IMG/VR virus record: IMGVR_UViG_2657244943_000011
Length of the DNA: 8,079 nt
From: a virus
Taxonomy: Duplodnaviria > Heunggongvirae > Uroviricota > Caudoviricetes
Direction: 5' to 3' (one strand)
Positions 1 through 8,079 of the stretch are shown here, piece after piece; position 1 is the stretch's first letter; every line of letters begins with the position of its first letter. The notes under the pieces are model-generated. The model was not told where the DNA came from and did not search any database. It saw only the letters and a list, made by a program, of their open reading frames with translations. Both the position numbers and the translations under genes were made by a program.

Positions 1-114
1 ATAAAACCGGGTGATGCAAAAGTAGCCATTTGATTCACAAGGCCATTGACGCATCGCCCGGTTAGTTTTAACCTTGTCCACCGTGATTCACGTTCGTGAA
101 CATGTCCTTTCAGG

Positions 115-190
115 GCCGATATAGCTCAGTTGGTAGAGCAGCGCATTCGTAATGCGAAGGTCGTAGGTTCGACTCCTATTATCGGCACCA
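115..190 (+). tRNA. thrW: tRNA-Thr (anticodon CGT)
   Basis: 76-nt cloverleaf read directly: acceptor stem GCCGATA pairs with TATCGGC, D-arm GCTC-AGTTGGTA-GAGC, anticodon loop TTCGTAA (anticodon CGT, reads ACG), T-arm GTAGG-TTCGACT-CCTAT, encoded CCA at 188-190. Matches my recollection of E. coli thrW, a known island integration site. Confidence 0.9.
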
Positions 191-200
191 TTCTAATGTC

Positions 201-356
201 TCCCCAAGTCTACTCAAGTATTTAAAAACCTCTTATAATCCGCATGTTAGCGCCCCTTTTAGTCTTTTGACGTCTACTTAAGTACCCCAAAATCTACAGT
301 CAATTGGGGGTACTTTTGGGGGTATTTGCTGTTCAGTTTAGTGGAGGTACCCCCAA
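201..356. promoter_or_regulatory. att arm / integrase upstream region with clustered short repeats (probable integrase arm-type sites and int promoter)
   Basis: Direct repeats GTCTACTCAAGTA (208-220) and GTCTACTTAAGTA (272-284); CCCCAAGT at 202-209 and 351-358; GGGGGTAC (306-313) and GGGGGTAT (318-325) 12 bp apart; inverted partners GTACCCC at 282-288 and 348-354. Lies between the tRNA 3' end and the int start codon. Confidence 0.4.
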
Positions 357-1571
357 GTGAAACTCAATGCCCGTCAAATAGACACTGCCAAGCCAAAAGA
401 GAAGGCTTACAAGCTGGCTGATGGTGGTGGTCTGTATCTCTTGGTAAAACCTAGTGGAGGAAAATATTGGCGCTTCAAGTATCGTGTAGCTGGTAAAGAG
501 AAGCTGTTAGCACTAGGTGTGTATCCTGAAGTTACTTTGGCTGATGCTCGTGCAAAACGTGAAGAAGCTAAAAGGGGTATCGCTGGGGGTATCGATCCGA
601 TGGAAGCGAAACGAGAGGAAAAGATTGCCCGGGAAACGCAGTTAAACAACACCTTCAAAGATATTGCCCTTGAGTGGCACAGCAGCAAATTAAAAAAATG
701 GTCTGCTGGTTATGCTTCAGACATCCTCGAAGCCTTCAACAAAGATGTGTTCCCTTACATTGGCAAAAAACCAATCGCCGAAATCAAACCACTTGAACTG
801 CTGAATGTGCTGCGGCGCATCGAGGGGCGCGGTGCTACCGAAAAAGCCAAAAAAGTGAGGCAGCGATGCGGGGAAGTTTTCCGCTATGCAATTGTCACTG
901 GACGTGCTGAGTATAACCCTGCACCGGATCTCACCAGCGCGATGCAAGGTCATGAATCTAATCATTATCCTTTCCTCACAGCCAAAGAATTACCTGATTT
1001 TTTCAAGGCATTGTCCAGTTACTCAGGAAGTGCATTGGTTGTTATGGCGGCTCGTCTACTGATTATCACCGGTTTGCGGACTGGCGAACTGCGCGGTGCA
1101 TTATGGGATGAAATCGATCTCAACAAGGCTATCTGGGAGATACCTGCTTCACGGATGAAAATGCGTCGCCCTCATGTGGTGCCTTTGTCTAAGCAGGCTC
1201 TTTCGCTTATTGGGCAGATTAAAGAATTAACTGGCAATTATCCGCTTATGTTTCCCGGCCGTAATGATCCAAGGAAAACAATGAGCGAGGCTAGCATAAA
1301 CCAAGTATTTAAACGCATCGGCTATAATGGAAAGGTTACTGGTCATGGATTCCGGCACACCATGAGCACCATTTTGCATGAGCAGGGCTATAACACCGCG
1401 TGGATAGAGACGCAGCTCGCACACGTCGATAAAAACTCAATTCGTGGCACATACAACCATGCGCAATATCTGGATGGACGGCGGGAAATGCTTCAGTGGT
1501 ACGCCGATTATATGGATTCGCTCGAGCATGGCGGAAATGTGGTGCATGGTGAGTTCGGAAAATGCGGGTGA
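357..1571 (+). CDS. int: site-specific tyrosine recombinase, P4-type integrase
   Basis: 404-aa ORF, GTG start at 357 with GGAGG 10 nt upstream, TGA stop 1569-1571. N-terminus MKLNARQIDTAKPKEKAYKLADGGGLYL...KYWRFKYR is typical of the P4/CP4-57 integrase arm-binding domain; C-terminal catalytic motifs present (TGLRTGELRG box I, HGFRHT box II, Tyr-containing GTYNHAQYLDGRREM). Directly downstream of a tRNA in the same orientation. Confidence 0.9.
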   Translation: MKLNARQIDTAKPKEKAYKLADGGGLYLLVKPSGGKYWRFKYRVAGKEKLLALGVYPEVTLADARAKREEAKRGIAGGIDPMEAKREEKIARETQLNNTFKDIALEWHSSKLKKWSAGYASDILEAFNKDVFPYIGKKPIAEIKPLELLNVLRRIEGRGATEKAKKVRQRCGEVFRYAIVTGRAEYNPAPDLTSAMQGHESNHYPFLTAKELPDFFKALSSYSGSALVVMAARLLIITGLRTGELRGALWDEIDLNKAIWEIPASRMKMRRPHVVPLSKQALSLIGQIKELTGNYPLMFPGRNDPRKTMSEASINQVFKRIGYNGKVTGHGFRHTMSTILHEQGYNTAWIETQLAHVDKNSIRGTYNHAQYLDGRREMLQWYADYMDSLEHGGNVVHGEFGKCG

Positions 1572-1699
1572 CTGGTTGAGTATACAGTAGTAGACTTTGA
1601 GCGACGAAAGAAAAGGCTGTGTCTAGGGGCGCTCCCGAAAATCCGTACATCTCGACGGACTGGTACAGCCACTACAGTAGAGGACGCTGAGGTGTGCGT

Positions 1700-2497
1700 A
1701 TGATTGATATTCATGCCGAATTAAACGAATACAAAAAAGATTTTATTTCTTTACGTGAATTTCTTGAGGTCGTGCTTAAGGTCGCTGGTGATGATTATGA
1801 TGTTTCAGATGTCATAACTTGGATACTCAGGAGAATAAGCGGAGAACATATCCGCCTGTACACAGTAAATGAATTTAAGCTGTTGGAATCTTTTTGTAAC
1901 CCGTATCGGGATGAATTTGATTATGATGTTCTTTATAGAAATCTGAATGCGGTTCGGAAACGTGGTTGTTTACCTGGTGAGAGGGATGAAAATGGTTTTC
2001 TGGTGTCCGGTTATTGGGAAGATCCCGAATTTGAGAACATTGGATTTATAAGGGGTGAAATTTTCGCAATTTTTCCCGATGTCCTTGACGCGTTAACGAA
2101 GCTGGAAGGCGCTAACTCTTCTGAAAATGACGAGGCACAAGGACGCGATATTGAAAAGAAAGAGTTGCGTACAGAGGATGATTTATTATCCCAAATCGCA
2201 ATGCTGGAAAAAGAAAACGCAGAGTTAAGGGCAAGGATAGAGCAGTTAGAGCAAGAGCGCCCGATACACTTATATAAATACTGGGATAAAGACCCATTAG
2301 CTAAGGCTATTGAGATTAGAAACAGAGAGTGGGCCAATTACGATCCAGAAAATGATTTTGCCACTAGGGGAAATCAAGAAGCGATAACCAGGGAGCTTAA
2401 GCAGTGGGGGGCAAGTAATGCTCTTGCAACGCTCATAGAGAGGACTGCCTGCCCTATTAACCGAGACAACAGCCAAAAGAACGCAAAGCCGGATTAA
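1700..2497 (+). CDS. hypothetical protein, low-GC orphan cargo gene with central acidic linker and coiled-coil segment
   Basis: ORF track frame 1694-2497; I prefer ATG 1700 (GAGG at 1689-1692, 7 nt spacing) over GTG 1694. TAA stop 2495-2497. Three 60-nt samples counted at about 35-42% GC versus about 52% in an int sample. No recognisable catalytic or DNA-binding motif; heptad-like LLSQIAMLEKENAELRARIEQLEQER. Confidence 0.6.
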   Translation: MIDIHAELNEYKKDFISLREFLEVVLKVAGDDYDVSDVITWILRRISGEHIRLYTVNEFKLLESFCNPYRDEFDYDVLYRNLNAVRKRGCLPGERDENGFLVSGYWEDPEFENIGFIRGEIFAIFPDVLDALTKLEGANSSENDEAQGRDIEKKELRTEDDLLSQIAMLEKENAELRARIEQLEQERPIHLYKYWDKDPLAKAIEIRNREWANYDPENDFATRGNQEAITRELKQWGASNALATLIERTACPINRDNSQKNAKPD

Positions 2498-2510
2498 CGC
2501 ACCATACCGC

Positions 2511-2655
2511 ATACCCTGAGGGTGATTTACTGTTACCCTGAGGGTATTTTTTTATCTTCCCCGTCAATTTTACCATCACCCTTAGGGTAGATTTCCTCCC
2601 GATTACCATCACCCTTAGGGTTAATTTCCTTCCGGTAACCATTAGGCCTGAGGGT
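2511..2655. repeat. array of near-palindromic 11-mers ACCCT(G/T)AGGGT including a 33-bp tandem direct repeat; probable regulator/recombinase binding sites upstream of alpA
   Basis: ACCCTGAGGGT at 2513-2523 and 2535-2545; ACCCTTAGGGT at 2578-2588 and 2611-2621; partial GGCCTGAGGGT at 2645-2655. Tandem 33-mers TTACCATCACCCTTAGGGTAGATTTCCTCCCGA (2570-2602) and TTACCATCACCCTTAGGGTTAATTTCCTTCCGG (2603-2635), 29/33 identical. Confidence 0.7.
2535..2554 (+). terminator. possible weak intrinsic terminator after the orphan gene (palindromic 11-mer followed by T7 run)
   Basis: ACCCTGAGGGT followed by A then TTTTTTT (2547-2553), 40-60 nt after the 2497 stop. The stem is short and would need pairing between neighbouring repeat copies, so this is tentative. 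Confidence 0.25.
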
Positions 2656-2724
2656 ATGAAAATATTCGTTATTTCTGTGCCATGATTACCTCGTCAAATT
2701 GAGTAGACGTTATGAGGTAAATAT

Positions 2725-2922
2725 ATGTCAAATACGCTTATTCGTTTAACAGAAGTTCAGCGTAGAACTGGATATAGCAAGGCATGGATTTATCGCCTTA
2801 TGGGGCAAGGTAAATTTCCTGCATCAGTTAAAATTGGCTCGCGAGCTATTGCTTTCGTTGAGAGTGAAATTGACGAGTGGATTAATCAGCGTATTGCTGA
2901 ATCACGCGGAACAGCTACCTGA
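2725..2922 (+). CDS. alpA: AlpA-family (phage Vis/excisionase-like) helix-turn-helix transcriptional regulator
   Basis: 65-aa ORF with GAGGT 6 nt upstream of ATG 2725. Sequence MSNTLIRLTEVQRRTGYSKAWIYRLMGQGKFPASVKIGSRAIAFVESEIDEWI matches the AlpA/Vis HTH pattern as I recall it. Its position after a P4-type int is typical of CP4-57-like and PICI-like islands. Confidence 0.85.
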   Translation: MSNTLIRLTEVQRRTGYSKAWIYRLMGQGKFPASVKIGSRAIAFVESEIDEWINQRIAESRGTAT

Positions 2923-3000
2923 TTAAATGGCTACGGGGCCAGAAGCCCCCAGCTATCCACCAGCAAATAAAAGTAACTTAATTCGATAGCAGGAGTTTTT

Positions 3001-3801
3001 ATGAAACTGCGAAAAACGCCCGTACAGGGGCAGGGCTTCGTTCGGCCTGAAAACCAGAATCTGCAAAATTTCGGCGAAATTATCCCGGTTATTTCCGGCG
3101 TTATTGGCGGGCGTGAAACCAATATTGTTAGCGGCAGAGCGTTGCATAAGGCGTTAGGTGTAGGTCGCGTTTTCCGTTCGTGGATCAAGGGGCGCATTGA
3201 AGAATACGGCTTCACGGAAGGCGTGGATTATGAGGTTGTTGAATATTTGAGCCGACCCGATCCGGTGAGCGCAAAATCTCGCCAGCAAACAGCTCTTGAG
3301 TACATCATTACCGTGAACATGGCGAAAGAACTGGCGATGGTCGAACGCACCGAACAGGGGCGCGCCGTTCGTCAGTACTTCATCAAATGCGAGGAAGAGC
3401 TACACAAGGTTGCGCCTGTACGTTCCGCAGCGTTACGCCGGGAACTGAAAGCCCGTATCACAGTTGCCAGCTACTTTAAGCCAATGTGTGCCGCGCTGGA
3501 GGACTACCGGGCTGAACTGGATAAAAACACTCTACAGCACCACTACACCACGGAAGCCAATATGCTGGCGCGTATCGTGCTGGGTGGCATGACTGCAAAA
3601 CAGTGGGCGCAGGTGAACGGCATCACAGGCGAACCACGCGACCACATGAGCACGTTGCAGCTTGAGCACCTTTCTTACCTTGAGCAGAGCAATATCACGC
3701 TGATTGAGTTAGGCCAGGACTACCACCAGCGGAAGGCTGAATTAATTCGTCTTTCGCAGCGTTGGTTAGCCCGTCGCATGGAGGAAAACAGCCATGTGTA
3801 A
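3001..3801 (+). CDS. phage antirepressor-like protein (AntA/AntB N-terminal domain type)
   Basis: 266-aa ORF, AGGAG 6 nt upstream of ATG 3001, TAA stop 3799-3801. Segment RALHKALGVGRVFRSWIKGRIEEYGFTEGVDYEV...ITVNMAKELAMVERTEQGRAVRQYFIKCEEEL resembles the AntA-type antirepressor N-terminal domain from memory; not verified by search. Confidence 0.6.
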   Translation: MKLRKTPVQGQGFVRPENQNLQNFGEIIPVISGVIGGRETNIVSGRALHKALGVGRVFRSWIKGRIEEYGFTEGVDYEVVEYLSRPDPVSAKSRQQTALEYIITVNMAKELAMVERTEQGRAVRQYFIKCEEELHKVAPVRSAALRRELKARITVASYFKPMCAALEDYRAELDKNTLQHHYTTEANMLARIVLGGMTAKQWAQVNGITGEPRDHMSTLQLEHLSYLEQSNITLIELGQDYHQRKAELIRLSQRWLARRMEENSHV

Positions 3802-4260
3802 CGCTCTGACCGTTACAAAAAGAGAAAGCGCCCCGTTGCCGGAGCGCCTTTGTGAACGAATAGCCTACTGCGCCATATTGCTTACTGTCTACGAGGCAGA
3901 TTATAGCGTTGTGGTCGCACAGAGTGAAGGCGCTGATCACCGTTACTACAGCACGCCAGAAATGCAGAATATTTTGCTGCAAAATGCCGTTGGCCACGCT
4001 GTCCGGAAAGCAAAAAATTTTGCTGGTGGCGCGACTGATGCGATTTTGTCAGGTCGCCAGGTGCTGATCAATCTGATGTCTGATTTCGTTCTGGATAAAA
4101 CAAAGGCGACCGCAGAGAGCCGCCAGTGGAAAAGCTACATACTTGAACGCATCACCAACAATGCCACATTTGCGGCTGGTGGGCAATGTGTCAGCTTTGC
4201 ACCAATGACTCTAGGTTTAACTGAGGGTCATTATGGTGAATATGCTGGCTTGCTGGTGGG
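3794..4260 (+). pseudogene. uncertain ORF / possible gene remnant; good start signals but no credible stop (frame runs on to 5380)
   Basis: ATG 3794 overlaps the upstream stop (ATGTGTAA) and has TGGAGGA 8 nt upstream, the same coupled-junction architecture as real genes downstream. The first ~140 codons look protein-like; beyond about 4200 the translation becomes Cys/Ser-rich and then runs antisense through the minus-strand gene at 4519-4824. The end coordinate is arbitrary. Confidence 0.2.
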
Positions 4261-4518
4261 CTATTCCTGCTCTTTAACATCGCCATGCCGCGATGTTTTC
4301 CAGGTATGCGACCCCATTTTTGTGCGCCTGTACTCTTTAAGGAATTTCTCAAGGATAAACGCACAGGGCGCGAATCTGTCTGACTCATGCTCGTACGCTA
4401 TCTTTCTGCGCTGTCTTTTCCGTGCCGGTGATGGTGTATTGGTTGATTCTTTGTTGGTCATGGCGCTGCCCTGTAAAACGATGCACCGTAGTTCCTCACA
4501 CCACGGCGCTGGTGATGG

Positions 4519-4824
4519 TTACTCCTGTTCTTTGGCCTTGCGCCGCTGGAGTTCTTCACGCGCGACGGTGACGAGTTGCCCGATCTCCTCGGCTGCTTTG
4601 ACACCGATTTTTTCCACCTGCGCCAGTGCATCGAGCGAAGAAACCAGGGGATTTTCTCCGCTTCCTTCTGCCTGGCGGCGGGCGATTTCACCGCGAACGG
4701 CTGTAATCACGAAAGCGGCTATTGTTTCCCCTTCCGTTTTCGAATTTTCCATTTCCTCGATTACATCATGGGGGAAGCGGATATTTTTCATTTGCGATCT
4801 GCTGTTGATGTTTCCTGTTGCCAT
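4519..4824 (-). CDS. putative ribbon-helix-helix (Arc/MetJ/CopG-like) DNA-binding regulator
   Basis: 101-aa minus-strand ORF with well-formed composition, unlike the plus-frame translation of the same DNA. N-terminal KNIRFPHDVIEEME followed by helical GETIAAFVITAVRGEIARRQA fits a beta-strand/helix/helix RHH pattern. Divergent from the small-gene operon across a palindrome-rich intergenic region. Start could be ATG 4824 or the internal ATG 4791; neither has a strong SD. Confidence 0.5.
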   Translation of the reverse strand: MATGNINSRSQMKNIRFPHDVIEEMENSKTEGETIAAFVITAVRGEIARRQAEGSGENPLVSSLDALAQVEKIGVKAAEEIGQLVTVAREELQRRKAKEQE

Positions 4825-5014
4825 CAGAATGTCCGGTTATTTTGAGGTGTGTACACATTACACCAAAAGGTGTGTTGATAAAACACTTGACACTGTAGCA
4901 CACTTAAATCTAATCTGTGTATACACTAATGATTGTGGTGTATATACAGCAACGCCCCGCAGTGGTGGCACACATGCAGGGCGTCTAACCAAACCGTTAA
5001 ACGAGGTAACGATT
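4825..5014. promoter_or_regulatory. divergent promoter/operator region with three perfect 10-bp palindromes
   Basis: TGTGTACACA (4848-4857), GTGTATACAC (4917-4926), TGTATATACA (4939-4948); additional GGTGT/ACACC half-sites; consensus -35 hexamer TTGACA at 4887-4892 and TTGATA at 4875-4880. AT-rich relative to flanks. Confidence 0.5.
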
Positions 5015-5380
5015 ATGGCTGGAACACAGCATACCCAAACTCACCCTAAATTTATATACACCTTCCTGGCGGTGCACCGTGATTGCATAGCTGACGGTAA
5101 AAACACTGTACACGTAGCCGCTGATACGCTGGTTGATGCCTGCGAGATGCTCAATGACATGGGCTATATCTCGGCAACATGGAAAGGGCGCGAAGAAAAC
5201 ACGCTGTTTATTCAGAAATGCGAGAACAATTTTATCTGGCGTTTTATCGCCCTGAGCACAGCACAACCGCGCGTAATTCACATCGAGGCCACCAGCGAAC
5301 AGGAAGCGCGTCAGCAATCTCCTGATGGCTGCGTGATGGTATTCGCTGCCCGTATTCGCCAGGAGGTGCACCATGCATAA
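5015..5380 (+). CDS. hypothetical protein (first gene of small-gene operon)
   Basis: ATG 5015 with GAGGT 7 nt upstream, TAA stop 5378-5380; 122 aa. In frame with the run-on ORF 3794-5380 but with its own initiation signals. Stop overlaps the next start. Confidence 0.6.
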   Translation: MAGTQHTQTHPKFIYTFLAVHRDCIADGKNTVHVAADTLVDACEMLNDMGYISATWKGREENTLFIQKCENNFIWRFIALSTAQPRVIHIEATSEQEARQQSPDGCVMVFAARIRQEVHHA

Positions 5381-5738
5381 CCTGTCAATTTATGACCTTA
5401 ACAGCATTCAGTTTCGTGAGAAATTCACCGAGCAGCTACTGGTTAACGTGGAGAATGGACGCGTGGTAAGTAATTATCACCTGCCGGATGGTGCAATTGC
5501 CGGAAGCGTTGAAGCATTGCTGGAACTGGCAGAACGTGCGCGACTTATTAAGCCGTTAACGAACCATCACGATGATGATCTGCATTTTACCGGACGCATG
5601 GTGAGTCACTACGAAAACGGCGTCGAGGTATCCCGCGAACGGCTGCGTGATGATTGCTGTTTCGGAACACTGCCGGAATTTAGCGAACTGCTGACCCGTT
5701 GCGATTACCGGATCATTCAGGGGGGAAGTCATGGGTAA
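5373..5738 (+). CDS. hypothetical protein
   Basis: 121-aa ORF; strong SD AGGAGGT (5361-5367) 5 nt before ATG 5373; 8-nt overlap ATGCATAA with upstream stop; TAA stop 5736-5738. Confidence 0.65.
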   Translation: MHNLSIYDLNSIQFREKFTEQLLVNVENGRVVSNYHLPDGAIAGSVEALLELAERARLIKPLTNHHDDDLHFTGRMVSHYENGVEVSRERLRDDCCFGTLPEFSELLTRCDYRIIQGGSHG

Positions 5739-5931
5739 TCAGCCAGCAACAATGACAATTACCCTGAATGTGCCAGATGATTTCACCGGGCGCGTACTGG
5801 TTTACCTGGATAAAGGGAAAGTGAAATCACAATGCCGACTGCGAAATAATGAAATTGTAAGTACGGTAGAAGGCTTTTCTGAACTATGTATTCGTGCAGG
5901 AATAAAACCGGAACTGCTGACAGGAAAATAA
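5731..5931 (+). CDS. hypothetical small protein
   Basis: 66-aa ORF; start overlaps upstream stop (ATGGGTAA); purine-rich GGGGGGAAG just upstream; TAA stop 5929-5931. Confidence 0.6.
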   Translation: MGNQPATMTITLNVPDDFTGRVLVYLDKGKVKSQCRLRNNEIVSTVEGFSELCIRAGIKPELLTGK

Positions 5932-5935
5932 AACC

Positions 5936-6226
5936 ATGAAAAAGAAAAATTCTGGCTTTACTGCCAGCGGCCTCTCTCGGTCTGCAATTCGCTCTGGCGA
6001 TATTTACCGCGACACCAGACGTGGGGGACGAGTGGTTATTCGTCACGTTACGCCAGGCAATATCACCTACCGCCGTGAGGCTTACGAATATGACTGCGTA
6101 ATGCCGCGCCGTCAGTTTGAGCGTGATTTTATTCTGGTGGAAAACAAACAATTGGCGGTGGCAAGACGTGCAGCCTCGAATATTAAAAAAATCCGGGCAA
6201 TGTTGGTTGCGGGAGGTAAGAAGTGA
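5936..6226 (+). CDS. hypothetical small basic protein
   Basis: 96-aa ORF 4 nt after the upstream stop; Lys/Arg-rich termini (MKKKNSG..., ...VAGGKK); TGA stop 6224-6226 overlaps the GTG start of the next gene (GTGA). Confidence 0.6.
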   Translation: MKKKNSGFTASGLSRSAIRSGDIYRDTRRGGRVVIRHVTPGNITYRREAYEYDCVMPRRQFERDFILVENKQLAVARRAASNIKKIRAMLVAGGKK

Positions 6227-8079
6227 AAAACGCACCGAATTTAAAATATCAGCCAAAGGATAAATTCACCGAGGTAATCATTTTTGCCGGGACGGATGCT
6301 TACGCCCATGCTCAACACTGGATTGAAAGCGAAGGACGAAAACACGGCGATAACGTGCCACCTGTTTACCTGGGGCCAACGCAACTGGCAGATCTGGCTA
6401 ATATCCGCATTATCGACGATGAGCGCCGCTTTGCGCGTGTTTATATCGCGGGGGAGATAGAGCCAATCCAGATCAATGCTATCGCTGAAAAGCTGGCGCT
6501 GGCTGGCGTACAGGATGCGAAATTATACAAAGGCATCACCGACCGGGAGCCGGAGAACTGGCGCGACTACCTGCAACGGATCCGCGAACAGGCAGAGCGC
6601 GGGGAAACCATTCCTGAAGGAATCGGAATAGCTGGTGGATCACCCGGTAAAACAGACCCCATGAAACCGCATATTACCGAAAAAGACGGGGCGCTCTGGT
6701 ATATCGAGCCAATCCCCAACACCAGGGCAGAGGAGATGAATTATAAAGAAACCTGGCTGAGTGACCGGATGCGCACGGCAGGTATTGGTAACGACGGAAG
6801 GGAAGCGTATCTGATCATTGAAATGATCCCGGAAGGGACACAAAAAATTATTTACGAAGCGATGCCGCGCAATGAAATCGGTATGCCCGCAGGATGGGCG
6901 CGATTACGTGGGCGGGGAGTTGCAATCACTACCAGTGCCCATTTACTGAACAAACTGGCGGAATACCTGCAACGTCATGGAGATCGCACGGTGTGGGAGG
7001 TCACATCAACAGCAGGTTGGCATTGTGGAGCCTATGTTATGCCTGATGGCGAGGTGATTGGTGTGCCTGACCGTCCCGTAGCATTCTGCGGCGGATCTGC
7101 CGCCATCAAAGGCTATATTGTCAGGGGCACGGTGCATGAATGGCGAAATAATGTTGCTTCTCTGATGCGTGGCAATCACTCAATGATGCTTGGGGTGCTG
7201 GTCGGGCTGGCAGCCCCGCTAAATTCCCTTGTGGGTGGTAGTTGTTTTGGTATTCATCTTTTCGCGCAGTCGTCAGCGGGGAAAACCACGACTGTGGAGG
7301 CCGCCACCAGCCTTTATGGCGACCCTGAAATGCTTAAACTCTCGTGGGATGCCACCCGGCACGGGCTGACAGTGGAAGCAGCTGCACGTAATGACGGTTT
7401 TATCCCTATTGATGAAATTGGTCAGGGAGGAAGGGTTAATGACATTGCGCAATCCGCCTACAGCCTGTTTAACGGTGTGGGCAGGATTCAGGGGCGCAAG
7501 GACGGCGGTAATCGTGCGGTAATGCGCTGGAAAATAGCGGCACTAAGCACCGGAGAAGAAGATTTTGAAACCTTCCTGTTAAAAGGGGGAATTGCCCCAA
7601 AGGCAGGGCAACTGGTGCGACTGCTAAGCATTCCCTTTACCGATACAACGGTGTTTAACGGTTATGACGATGGTGATCAACATGCCAGGGCCATAAAGCG
7701 ACTTTCATCAAATTATTGTGGCGCTGCGGGACGTGAGTGGGTGCGCTGGTTATCCGCTCACAAGGAGCTGGCTATCAACACCACTTCAGATAAAGAAAAT
7801 GCCTGGCTGGGAAATCTGCCTGAAAATGCCTCGTCACAGGTAAGGCGAGTGGCATCGCGATTCGCCATGCTGGATGCAGCCGGAGAGCTTGCCACCGCAA
7901 TTACTGGCTGGACAACTGAAGAATGCCGGGAAGCAACGCAACGGGCTTTTGATGACTGGCTACAGGATTTCGGGCTGGAAAACCGGGAAAAATATCAGGT
8001 CATCAGTAAGCGTGCAGCAAGAACCGTATTGACGGGGATGTGTTATTCAGTCGGCAGTGCTACGCGCCAGGGGAGCAGT
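6223..8079 (+). CDS. P-loop NTPase, probable replication primase/helicase-like protein of the island (3' end truncated by window)
   Basis: Open frame 1 from GTG 6223 (in-frame TAA at 6217-6219 just upstream; GGGAGG 6211-6216) to the window end, at least 619 codons; not in the ORF track because it has no stop in the window. Walker A FAQSSAGKTT (about 7261-7290) and Walker B-like GFIPIDEIGQ (about 7396-7425). Large ATPase after small coupled genes is the usual position of the replication protein in P4-family/PICI-like islands. Confidence 0.7.
   Translation, partial: MKNAPNLKYQPKDKFTEVIIFAGTDAYAHAQHWIESEGRKHGDNVPPVYLGPTQLADLANIRIIDDERRFARVYIAGEIEPIQINAIAEKLALAGVQDAKLYKGITDREPENWRDYLQRIREQAERGETIPEGIGIAGGSPGKTDPMKPHITEKDGALWYIEPIPNTRAEEMNYKETWLSDRMRTAGIGNDGREAYLIIEMIPEGTQKIIYEAMPRNEIGMPAGWARLRGRGVAITTSAHLLNKLAEYLQRHGDRTVWEVTSTAGWHCGAYVMPDGEVIGVPDRPVAFCGGSAAIKGYIVRGTVHEWRNNVASLMRGNHSMMLGVLVGLAAPLNSLVGGSCFGIHLFAQSSAGKTTTVEAATSLYGDPEMLKLSWDATRHGLTVEAAARNDGFIPIDEIGQGGRVNDIAQSAYSLFNGVGRIQGRKDGGNRAVMRWKIAALSTGEEDFETFLLKGGIAPKAGQLVRLLSIPFTDTTVFNGYDDGDQHARAIKRLSSNYCGAAGREWVRWLSAHKELAINTTSDKENAWLGNLPENASSQVRRVASRFAMLDAAGELATAITGWTTEECREATQRAFDDWLQDFGLENREKYQVISKRAARTVLTGMCYSVGSATRQGSS

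Follow-up and report, generated by a model that had tools for sequence, protein, structure and literature searches.

A thrW–integrase junction as the attL end of an integrative island, probably of the EcCIMP1 type

Introduction

The window analyzed here, a stretch of 8,079 nucleotides, begins directly after proA and contains at 115–1571 a tRNA gene closely followed by an integrase gene. Is this pair the boundary of an integrated element, where is the other boundary, and what kind of element lies between them? The initial annotation took it as an island junction at a thrW-type tRNA-Thr with an adjacent P4-type integrase. thrW is documented as an integration hotspot, and our literature search on thrW integrase satellites found nothing relevant.

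We put the probability at about 0.85 that a site-specific integrative island of ~15.5 kb, best read as an EcCIMP1-type phage-inducible chromosomal island (PICI), has its attL junction at 115–1571. The narrower point that the island is a satellite is held less firmly, as likely. The junction is an ordinary tRNA-borne island junction of a well-understood kind, and the refinements below are incremental.

The reference element, EcCIMP1 of E. coli MP1 (NZ_CP139039), is 19,963 bp long and resides in tRNA-Thr between proA and yagU (PMC11773190). It is excised only when int and the alpA nearest to int are present, and it is induced by a helper and transduced by phage Kapi1 (PMC11773190). It has no capsid-morphogenesis gene and is classed as Type C, which is like the component tally of the island described here (PMC11773190).

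Results

An intact thrW is followed by a P4-type integrase gene

ARAGORN finds only one tRNA in the window, a tRNA-Thr(CGT) on the plus strand, and it is identical to K-12 thrW at 76 of 76 nucleotides, which bears out its initial assignment. A tRNA-Thr is annotated at the equivalent locus in all related genomes. The int gene follows on the same strand after a gap of 166 bp, as had been stated, and its coordinates match the RefSeq annotation in the closest genomes (Table 1).

Table 1 Features of the window, with positions counted from its first nucleotide
Feature	Position	Strand	Basis
thrW, tRNA-Thr(CGT), intact; attL at its 3′ end	115..190	+	ARAGORN, K-12 identity, annotation
attL identity block TCCTATTATCGGCACCA(TT), common to attR (TCCTATTATCG-CACCATT) and empty attB	174..192	+	base-by-base junction comparison
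Degenerate arm-like motif copy (TTGGGGAGAC) near the core, 2 mismatches, weak; putative function	198..207	-	
Candidate arm-type Int site (TTTGGGGTAC), inverted, degenerate	282..291	-	
Two candidate arm-type Int sites in tandem, TTGGGGGTACTTTTGGGGGTAT (P′ arm)	304..325	+	enrichment, recurrence at attR, conservation
Ribosome-binding site GGAGG	342-346		
Candidate arm-type site in inverted orientation, adjoining the int start codon	347..356	-	motif scan; P4 parallel
int, P4-type tyrosine integrase, 404 aa, GTG start, intact	357..1571	+	Pfam, PHROG, P4 Int identity
267-aa gene of the island, flanked by int and alpA (start at 1700 in RefSeq)	1694..2497	+	
alpA, AlpA/Vis-family regulator-excisionase	2725..2922	+	Pfam Phage_AlpA 2.4e-19
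AntA/AntB-type antirepressor gene	3001..3801	+	Pfam AntA 6.8e-23; PHROG anti-repressor
DUF927 primase/helicase-like replication gene, incomplete in the window	6223..8007	+	PHROG DNA primase 1.9e-84
End of an IS66-family element (ISEc22) within the primase-like gene	8008..8079	.	100% match to ISEc22-annotated DNA

Int has the three domains of a P4-type integrase, namely N-terminal arm-binding (Arm-DNA-bind_3, PF13356, 3.6e-29), central (Phage_int_M, PF22022, 1.3e-34) and C-terminal catalytic (Phage_integrase, PF00589, 4.9e-26), with matches far exceeding chance. It also matches a PHROG integrase at 3e-78. The initial classification as P4-type is upheld by a full-length match to P4 Int at 42.7% identity (405 aa, E 1e-116). 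The identity is 48.7% to HK620 Int and as high as 96% to EcCIMP1 Int. With 306.9 bits against NCBIfam PRK09692, for which the cut-off is 434 bits, Int is not an equivalog of the PRK09692 subgroup; in the NCBIfam search, Int gave only matches below cut-off and AlpA gave none.

The catalytic motif residues of Int are R241, H330, R333, H356 and Y366, probably with K268, and the motifs LRTGELR, MK, HGFRH, LAH and GTY are common to Int and the integrases of P4, HK620 and EcCIMP1. The roles of these R-K-H-R-H-Y residues are presumably those established for tyrosine recombinases. When the plus strand was scanned for consensus σ70 promoters, none was found for int, and a terminator scan between thrW and int found none.

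Both ends of the island are located at the thrW core

The core was expected at the 3′ end of the tRNA, with the left boundary within or just after the tRNA gene. Base-by-base comparison of the junctions places this boundary at 174–192. The distal direct repeat proposed as a check is also present. In ARS-C301, the closest genome, which is 100% identical to the window over 1–8007, attR lies 15,472 bp from attL. It repeats the final 17 nt of thrW with one G missing, TCCTATTATCG-CACCA, and continues into the backbone TTAAAATCAAAGAG.

Because of the one-base deletion, a repeat search that allows only substitutions misses attR, which was instead located by an alignment of the ptwF/yagP junction of K-12 with the other genomes. 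The same attR form is found in O104:H4, 55989 and MP1. In MP1 the core-to-core spacing of the repeats reproduces the published EcCIMP1 size exactly. attR adjoins the yagP/paoD backbone, the same backbone that lies 3′ of ptwF in K-12. With proA on one side and this backbone on the other, the island occupies the 3′ end of thrW; in ARS-C301, foreign DNA reaches from thrW as far as a truncated LysR gene (yagP) beside paoD. Matches of O104:H4 to the window begin at 172.

The missing G bears on where the strands are exchanged. attL and the empty attB have GG, whereas attR has a single G in ARS-C301, 55989/O104:H4 and MP1. Since attR is composed of the left part of attP and the right part of attB, the single G would come from attP. 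For a single-G attR to arise from a GG attB and to persist in the element lineage, the exchange must be 3′ of the indel; an alternative position would place the single G in the tRNA. We therefore favor, with some reserve, an exchange within GCACCA(TT) at 185–192 of the window (GCACCATT). The published EcCIMP1 core is a 10-nt repeat, TCCTATTATC, and this position would refine that proposal.

A single-G core also occurs at the right end in 15 of 19 species that have a comparable arrangement (see below), and GG occurs in the other 4 as well as in E. coli E189. The far junction in E189 shows that another element came first, so the E189 island has a GG-type attP. Its GG core is compatible with the crossover model but uninformative about it, and the four GG species are likewise uninformative on the crossover position.

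Candidate arm-type sites flank the core in a P4-like layout

The 166-bp spacer between thrW and int contains three exact copies of TTGGGGGTA, at 304–312 (+), 316–324 (+) and 348–356 (-), against 0.14 expected in the whole window. In ARS-C301, the tandem pair formed by the first two recurs 62 nt inside attR. O104:H4 and 55989 have a copy with one mismatch at the equivalent position. The attR-proximal pair persists although the adjacent cargo DNA differs completely between genomes.

A pattern scan with one genome per species found the pair, a distance of ~60 nt and a tRNA-fragment core in 19 genomes, including those of Citrobacter, Kluyvera, Leclercia, Cedecea, Pectobacterium, Pluralibacter, Lelliottia and Lonsdalea. 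The degenerate copy nearest the core lies in a context, CCCCAAGTCTAC, that is kept in tandem junctions of other species.

The annotated arm repeats of P4 (NC_001609) are TTGGGGGCAT-like, and TTGGGGGTAY of the island is nearly the same. Read in the int direction, the attP of P4 consists of a pair, 53 nt, the core, 112 nt, a pair and an inverted copy over the int start, and that of the island consists of a pair, 62 nt, the core, 113 nt, a pair and an inverted copy abutting the int start. In P4, as in the island, the core corresponds to the last 17–20 nt of a tRNA gene, with GGCACCA at its end. The two differ in target, which is leuX for P4 and thrW for the island.

The locus thus has the makeup of a P4-type attP, with a short core from the tRNA 3′ end (174–190/192) between arm-type repeats on both sides, at which Int is predicted to bind. 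By analogy with P4, Int would bind the TTGGGGGTA repeats. The repeats over the ribosome-binding site and the start codon suggest that Int may autoregulate its own expression.

The island carries regulatory, replication and cargo genes

The full island in ARS-C301 has 22 genes. They start with int, the 267-aa gene, alpA, antA, two divergent small genes and an Icd/repressor-like gene. Onward come small ORFs, a DUF4222 gene, the DUF927 primase-like gene, a ProQ/FinO-like gene, a PerC-like gene and several ORFs. At the distal end there are a gene for a 175-aa protein and a variable distal pair next to attR.

The 267-aa gene has no match in Pfam, PHROGs, NCBIfam or PADLOC and is absent from EcCIMP1. 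The 175-aa protein, encoded outside the window, matches TerS phrog_57 weakly (5e-6) and only with its N-terminal 42 aa. Another unassigned product encoded outside the window is 380 aa long. No tail, holin or other virion or lysis gene was found among the 22 genes (PHROGs, annotation), nor a capsid-morphogenesis gene in the full island (PHROGs, Pfam, RefSeq annotation).

The variable cargo slot beside attR carries defence genes, among them those of PARIS, of a SIR2 protein and of a methyltransferase/HEPN set. PADLOC gave no match for the ARS-C301 distal pair, which includes a DUF4747 gene, or for the unassigned ORFs.

The island is polymorphic at a shared integration site

Occupancy of thrW was counted in 5426 complete E. 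coli genomes, using as query a synthetic empty site in which thrW is joined straight to the backbone. The empty site is matched in 948 of the 5426, with 100% matches in a single piece, for example in ATCC 8739. thrW with this int type (window 60–1571, at least 80% covered) occurs in 721 genomes (13%). The gene set of the window is much rarer, as at least 80% of the window is matched in only 27 genomes, including 55989 and, from 172 on, the O104:H4 outbreak lineage. With empty sites common and both ends located, the island is an insertion whose presence is polymorphic and whose two ends can be defined.

thrW serves at least four unrelated integrases. Their thrW repeat is 16–19 nt for the P4-type Int of this island, 49 nt for IntF of CP4-6, 46 nt for P22 Int and 19 nt for the one encoded by a 13-kb element of O104:H4. 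HK620 was considered as another user and rejected, since its annotated attP core is unlike thrW; the P22 attP does resemble thrW.

Tandem arrays exist in both orders. The order is thrW, another element, this island and backbone in O104:H4, and thrW, island, another element and backbone in E189. In MP1, EcCIMP1 comes after thrW, and behind it lies the Vat island together with a truncated int of the same type. The far junction of E189 indicates that the thrW-adjacent element was the last to arrive. The E189 order fits an attB that every integration regenerates intact; the other arrays are compatible with this.

EcCIMP1 is the closest characterized relative

EcCIMP1 and the island share the thrW site and identical attL and attR cores, the single-G attR included, and neither has virion genes. 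Besides Int, the proteins in common are AlpA (81% identity, to the very AlpA needed for EcCIMP1 excision), AntA (58%), the PerC-like protein (48%) and the DUF927 primase (43%). The remaining EcCIMP1 proteins have no detectable match in the island, except a 53-aa protein (62%) and a second AlpA that weakly matches the island alpA product. Outside int and att, the nucleotide likeness is limited to scattered patches, of 65–74% in alpA, antA and the primase gene.

The two also differ in size, 15.5 kb for the island and 20 kb for EcCIMP1. The island is without the DNA-ejection/DUF2824-like genes and the second alpA of EcCIMP1, and has in addition the 267-aa gene between int and alpA, the ProQ/FinO-like gene and the defence-cargo slot.

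The EcCICFT073-type PICIs of Gram-negative bacteria (PMC6092414) resemble the island in the int, alpA and primase organization, a PerC-like gene, a size of 10–20 kb and AlpA as the inducible activator. This likeness is one of organization. No cos site, Rpp or capsid-morphogenesis gene of the EcCICFT073 type was identified on the island. A published PICI criterion is an attachment site exclusive of prophages, and in this respect the island departs from the EcCICFT073-type PICIs, as thrW is also used by prophages (P22 attP, CP4-6).

The gene set probably marks a PICI rather than another mobile element

The EcCIMP1-type PICI reading follows from the presence of int, alpA, an antirepressor gene and a primase-like gene together with the absence of virion and lysis genes. 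In terms of the PICI core set of SatelliteFinder, the island has an integrase, an AlpA-type regulator next to int and a primase-replicase, and it is free of virion genes, as SatelliteFinder asks. Of the five components, three are clear, capsid-morphogenesis is absent and the TerS-like match is weak.

The main rival is an integrative island independent of a helper, that is, a genomic or defence island that is mobilized by its integrase, where Int and AlpA move the island without any helper phage. In its favor, clear genes for packaging or capsid redirection are lacking on the island, the SatelliteFinder criteria allow a three-component (Type C) set to belong to another mobile element, the attR slot holds defence cargo, and ProQ/FinO-like proteins are found more typically on plasmids. 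On the other hand, EcCIMP1, with the same set of int, att, alpA, antA, primase and PerC, is helper-induced and transduced; the order of int, alpA, primase and small genes is that of Gram-negative PICIs; and no relaxase or conjugation genes are annotated on the island. We regard this rival as unlikely.

A strict P4-like satellite, parasitizing P2-type helpers, is suggested by homology to P4 in the integrase, in the arm-site motif and in the attP layout, and by 37% identity of AlpA to P4 Vis. However, such a satellite is defined by seven components (int, psu, delta, sid, alpA, epsilon and alpha), and when all 13 P4 proteins were compared with the full island by tblastn, only Int and Vis were found. 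P4 psu, delta, sid, epsilon, alpha and cos have no counterpart on the island. With five of the seven core components missing, the island is not a P4-like satellite, and we consider this reading highly improbable.

The initial annotation was right that thrW carries CP4-6 in K-12, but a CP4-6 variant or remnant, or an ancient fixed remnant without mobile history, has practically no chance of explaining the junction: the empty sites and an integrase unrelated to IntF refute it. CP4-6 shares with the island the chromosomal site and, like P22, a repeat that includes the same thrW 3′ end. The repeats of CP4-6 and P22 are much longer, their integrases are unrelated, and int position and gene content differ (entirely so for the genes of CP4-6). 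IntF has no meaningful identity to Int (E 5e-4), and its gene lies distally in CP4-6, on the other strand, with the 49-nt repeat as ptwF. Empty sites are common, and tandem order varies between strains.

Discussion

A course of integration and transfer can be proposed. In integration, Int would bind the arm-type sites that flank the short core and recombine attP with the terminal ~17 nt of thrW. With the exchange most likely in the final GCACCA(TT), the tRNA gene would stay entirely chromosomal and intact. An intact attB would be regenerated beside the tRNA, so that further elements could stack in tandem.

The later steps are modeled on EcCIMP1 and EcCICFT073. A helper phage would turn on alpA, AlpA and Int would excise the island, the primase would replicate the excised form, and the helper phage would package it.

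A more specific proposal joins several points, and we give it an even chance of holding as a whole. The island of 55989, O104:H4 and ARS-C301 would be a distinct PICI lineage that shares only the integration module with EcCIMP1. Its attP would have a single G where attB has GG, and the exchange would occur in the last 6–8 nt of thrW (GCACCA, plus TT) rather than in TCCTATTATC. The whole attP–int cassette, with its arm-site motif, its spacing and its overlap with the start codon, would be an ancient module in common with P4 whose target changed from leuX to thrW.

For a common type of thrW island, both ends are now fixed, which is of value mainly for annotation. This island type is set apart from CP4-6 and from true P4-like satellites, and the island of 55989 and the O104:H4 outbreak lineage is tied to an experimentally validated satellite. 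The two-armed P4-like attP, the likely crossover at the extreme tRNA 3′ end and the defence-cargo slot at attR could guide experiments, although none of them would surprise a specialist.

The copy in the window has its own history. The DUF927 reading frame, which encodes 710 aa in its intact form (RefSeq annotation), breaks at 8008, where it runs into the end of ISEc22, and the junction of the primase-like gene and ISEc22 is absent from all of the 5426 complete E. coli genomes. Loss of pri in EcCICFT073 cut transfer greatly. Replication of this copy after excision is probably impaired or defective, while its integration module is intact. Sequence similar to 8006–8079 occurs in 2109 genomes.

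Cargo and neighboring elements at thrW

The content of the slot directly inside attR, the distal island junction, varies between the five genomes compared (O104:H4, 55989, E189, BCE049 and ARS-C301; see table below), and in this it resembles the defence hotspots known from satellites.

Coordinates and assignments of slot cargoes, the interrupted gene and doubtful reading frames (L-numbers denote loci of the named genomes)
Feature	Location	Strand	Assignment or remark
Slot cargo, O104:H4	L003 28074-30030		PARIS AriA/AriB (PADLOC 5e-43 and 3.6e-22, with 55989)
Slot cargo, 55989	L028 24245-26201		PARIS AriA/AriB (PADLOC 5e-43 and 3.6e-22, with O104:H4)
Slot cargo, E189	L029 27497-30595		DNA methyltransferase, DUF262 and HEPN nuclease
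Slot cargo, BCE049	L030 25346-28064		SIR2-family protein and protein without assignment
Slot cargo, ARS-C301	L002 29414-30906		DUF4747 and protein without assignment
End of IS66-family element (ISEc22)	window 8008-8079		breaks DUF927 primase-like gene
528-aa ORF	window 3794-5380		overlaps two minus-strand genes
Minus-strand gene	window 4261-4461	-	phrog_21027, 8e-33; overlapped by 528-aa ORF
YlcI/YnfO	window 4519-4824	-	phrog_6522, 9e-49; overlapped by 528-aa ORF

The thrW site also receives other elements. A 13-kb element, bounded by a 19-nt thrW repeat and carrying at its distal end its own tyrosine integrase unrelated to the island Int, lies in tandem with the island in O104:H4 (L003 2041-15019) and E189 (L029 30960 to L031 8975), and the side of the island that it takes differs between these two strains. 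The tandem element is absent from 55989, a close relative of O104:H4. In BCE049 (L030 28290-28400), the core of the island right end is cut after TCCTATTATC, and a second, integrase-encoding prophage begins directly behind it. The island attR thus seems to have served as the integration site of another phage that targets thrW.

Only the 5′ part (~280 nt) of this P4-type int is found adjoining thrW or an att repeat in many E. coli genomes. In MP1, the host of EcCIMP1, such an int remnant lies ahead of the island encoding the Vat autotransporter (L008, reverse-complement coordinates 21784-22292), which suggests that an integrase of this family once brought in the Vat island.

Interrupted primase-like gene

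Because the junction of ISEc22 with the primase-like gene occurs in none of 5426 complete E. coli genomes, the island copy in the source strain is private, and it is probably replication-defective.

Reading frames and the region upstream of alpA

Assignment of the two minus-strand genes as real is well supported. The Icd-like/repressor family match of the 528-aa ORF is confined to its last ~70 aa, and its true start is uncertain, since the RefSeq start call differs in every genome, giving products of 190, 184, 121 or 73 aa. The 267-aa ORF between int and alpA (1694-2497) has no match in Pfam, PHROGs, NCBIfam or PADLOC and no equivalent in EcCIMP1.

Upstream of alpA, two short hairpins (2512-2524 and 2534-2546) are each followed by a T-run (TACCCTGAGGGT). 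Next comes a tandem repeat of a 33-nt unit, at 2570-2602 and 2603-2635. Two copies of the unit are present in the window, ARS-C301 and E189, one in 55989 and O104:H4, and none in BCE049. The hairpins and repeats may act in the control region of alpA, as operators or iteron-like sites.

Probably misassigned assemblies

The enterobacterial attR architecture was also observed on contigs labeled as Bacillota MAGs and Vagococcus (loci L010, L013 and L018), probably reflecting contamination or mis-binning.
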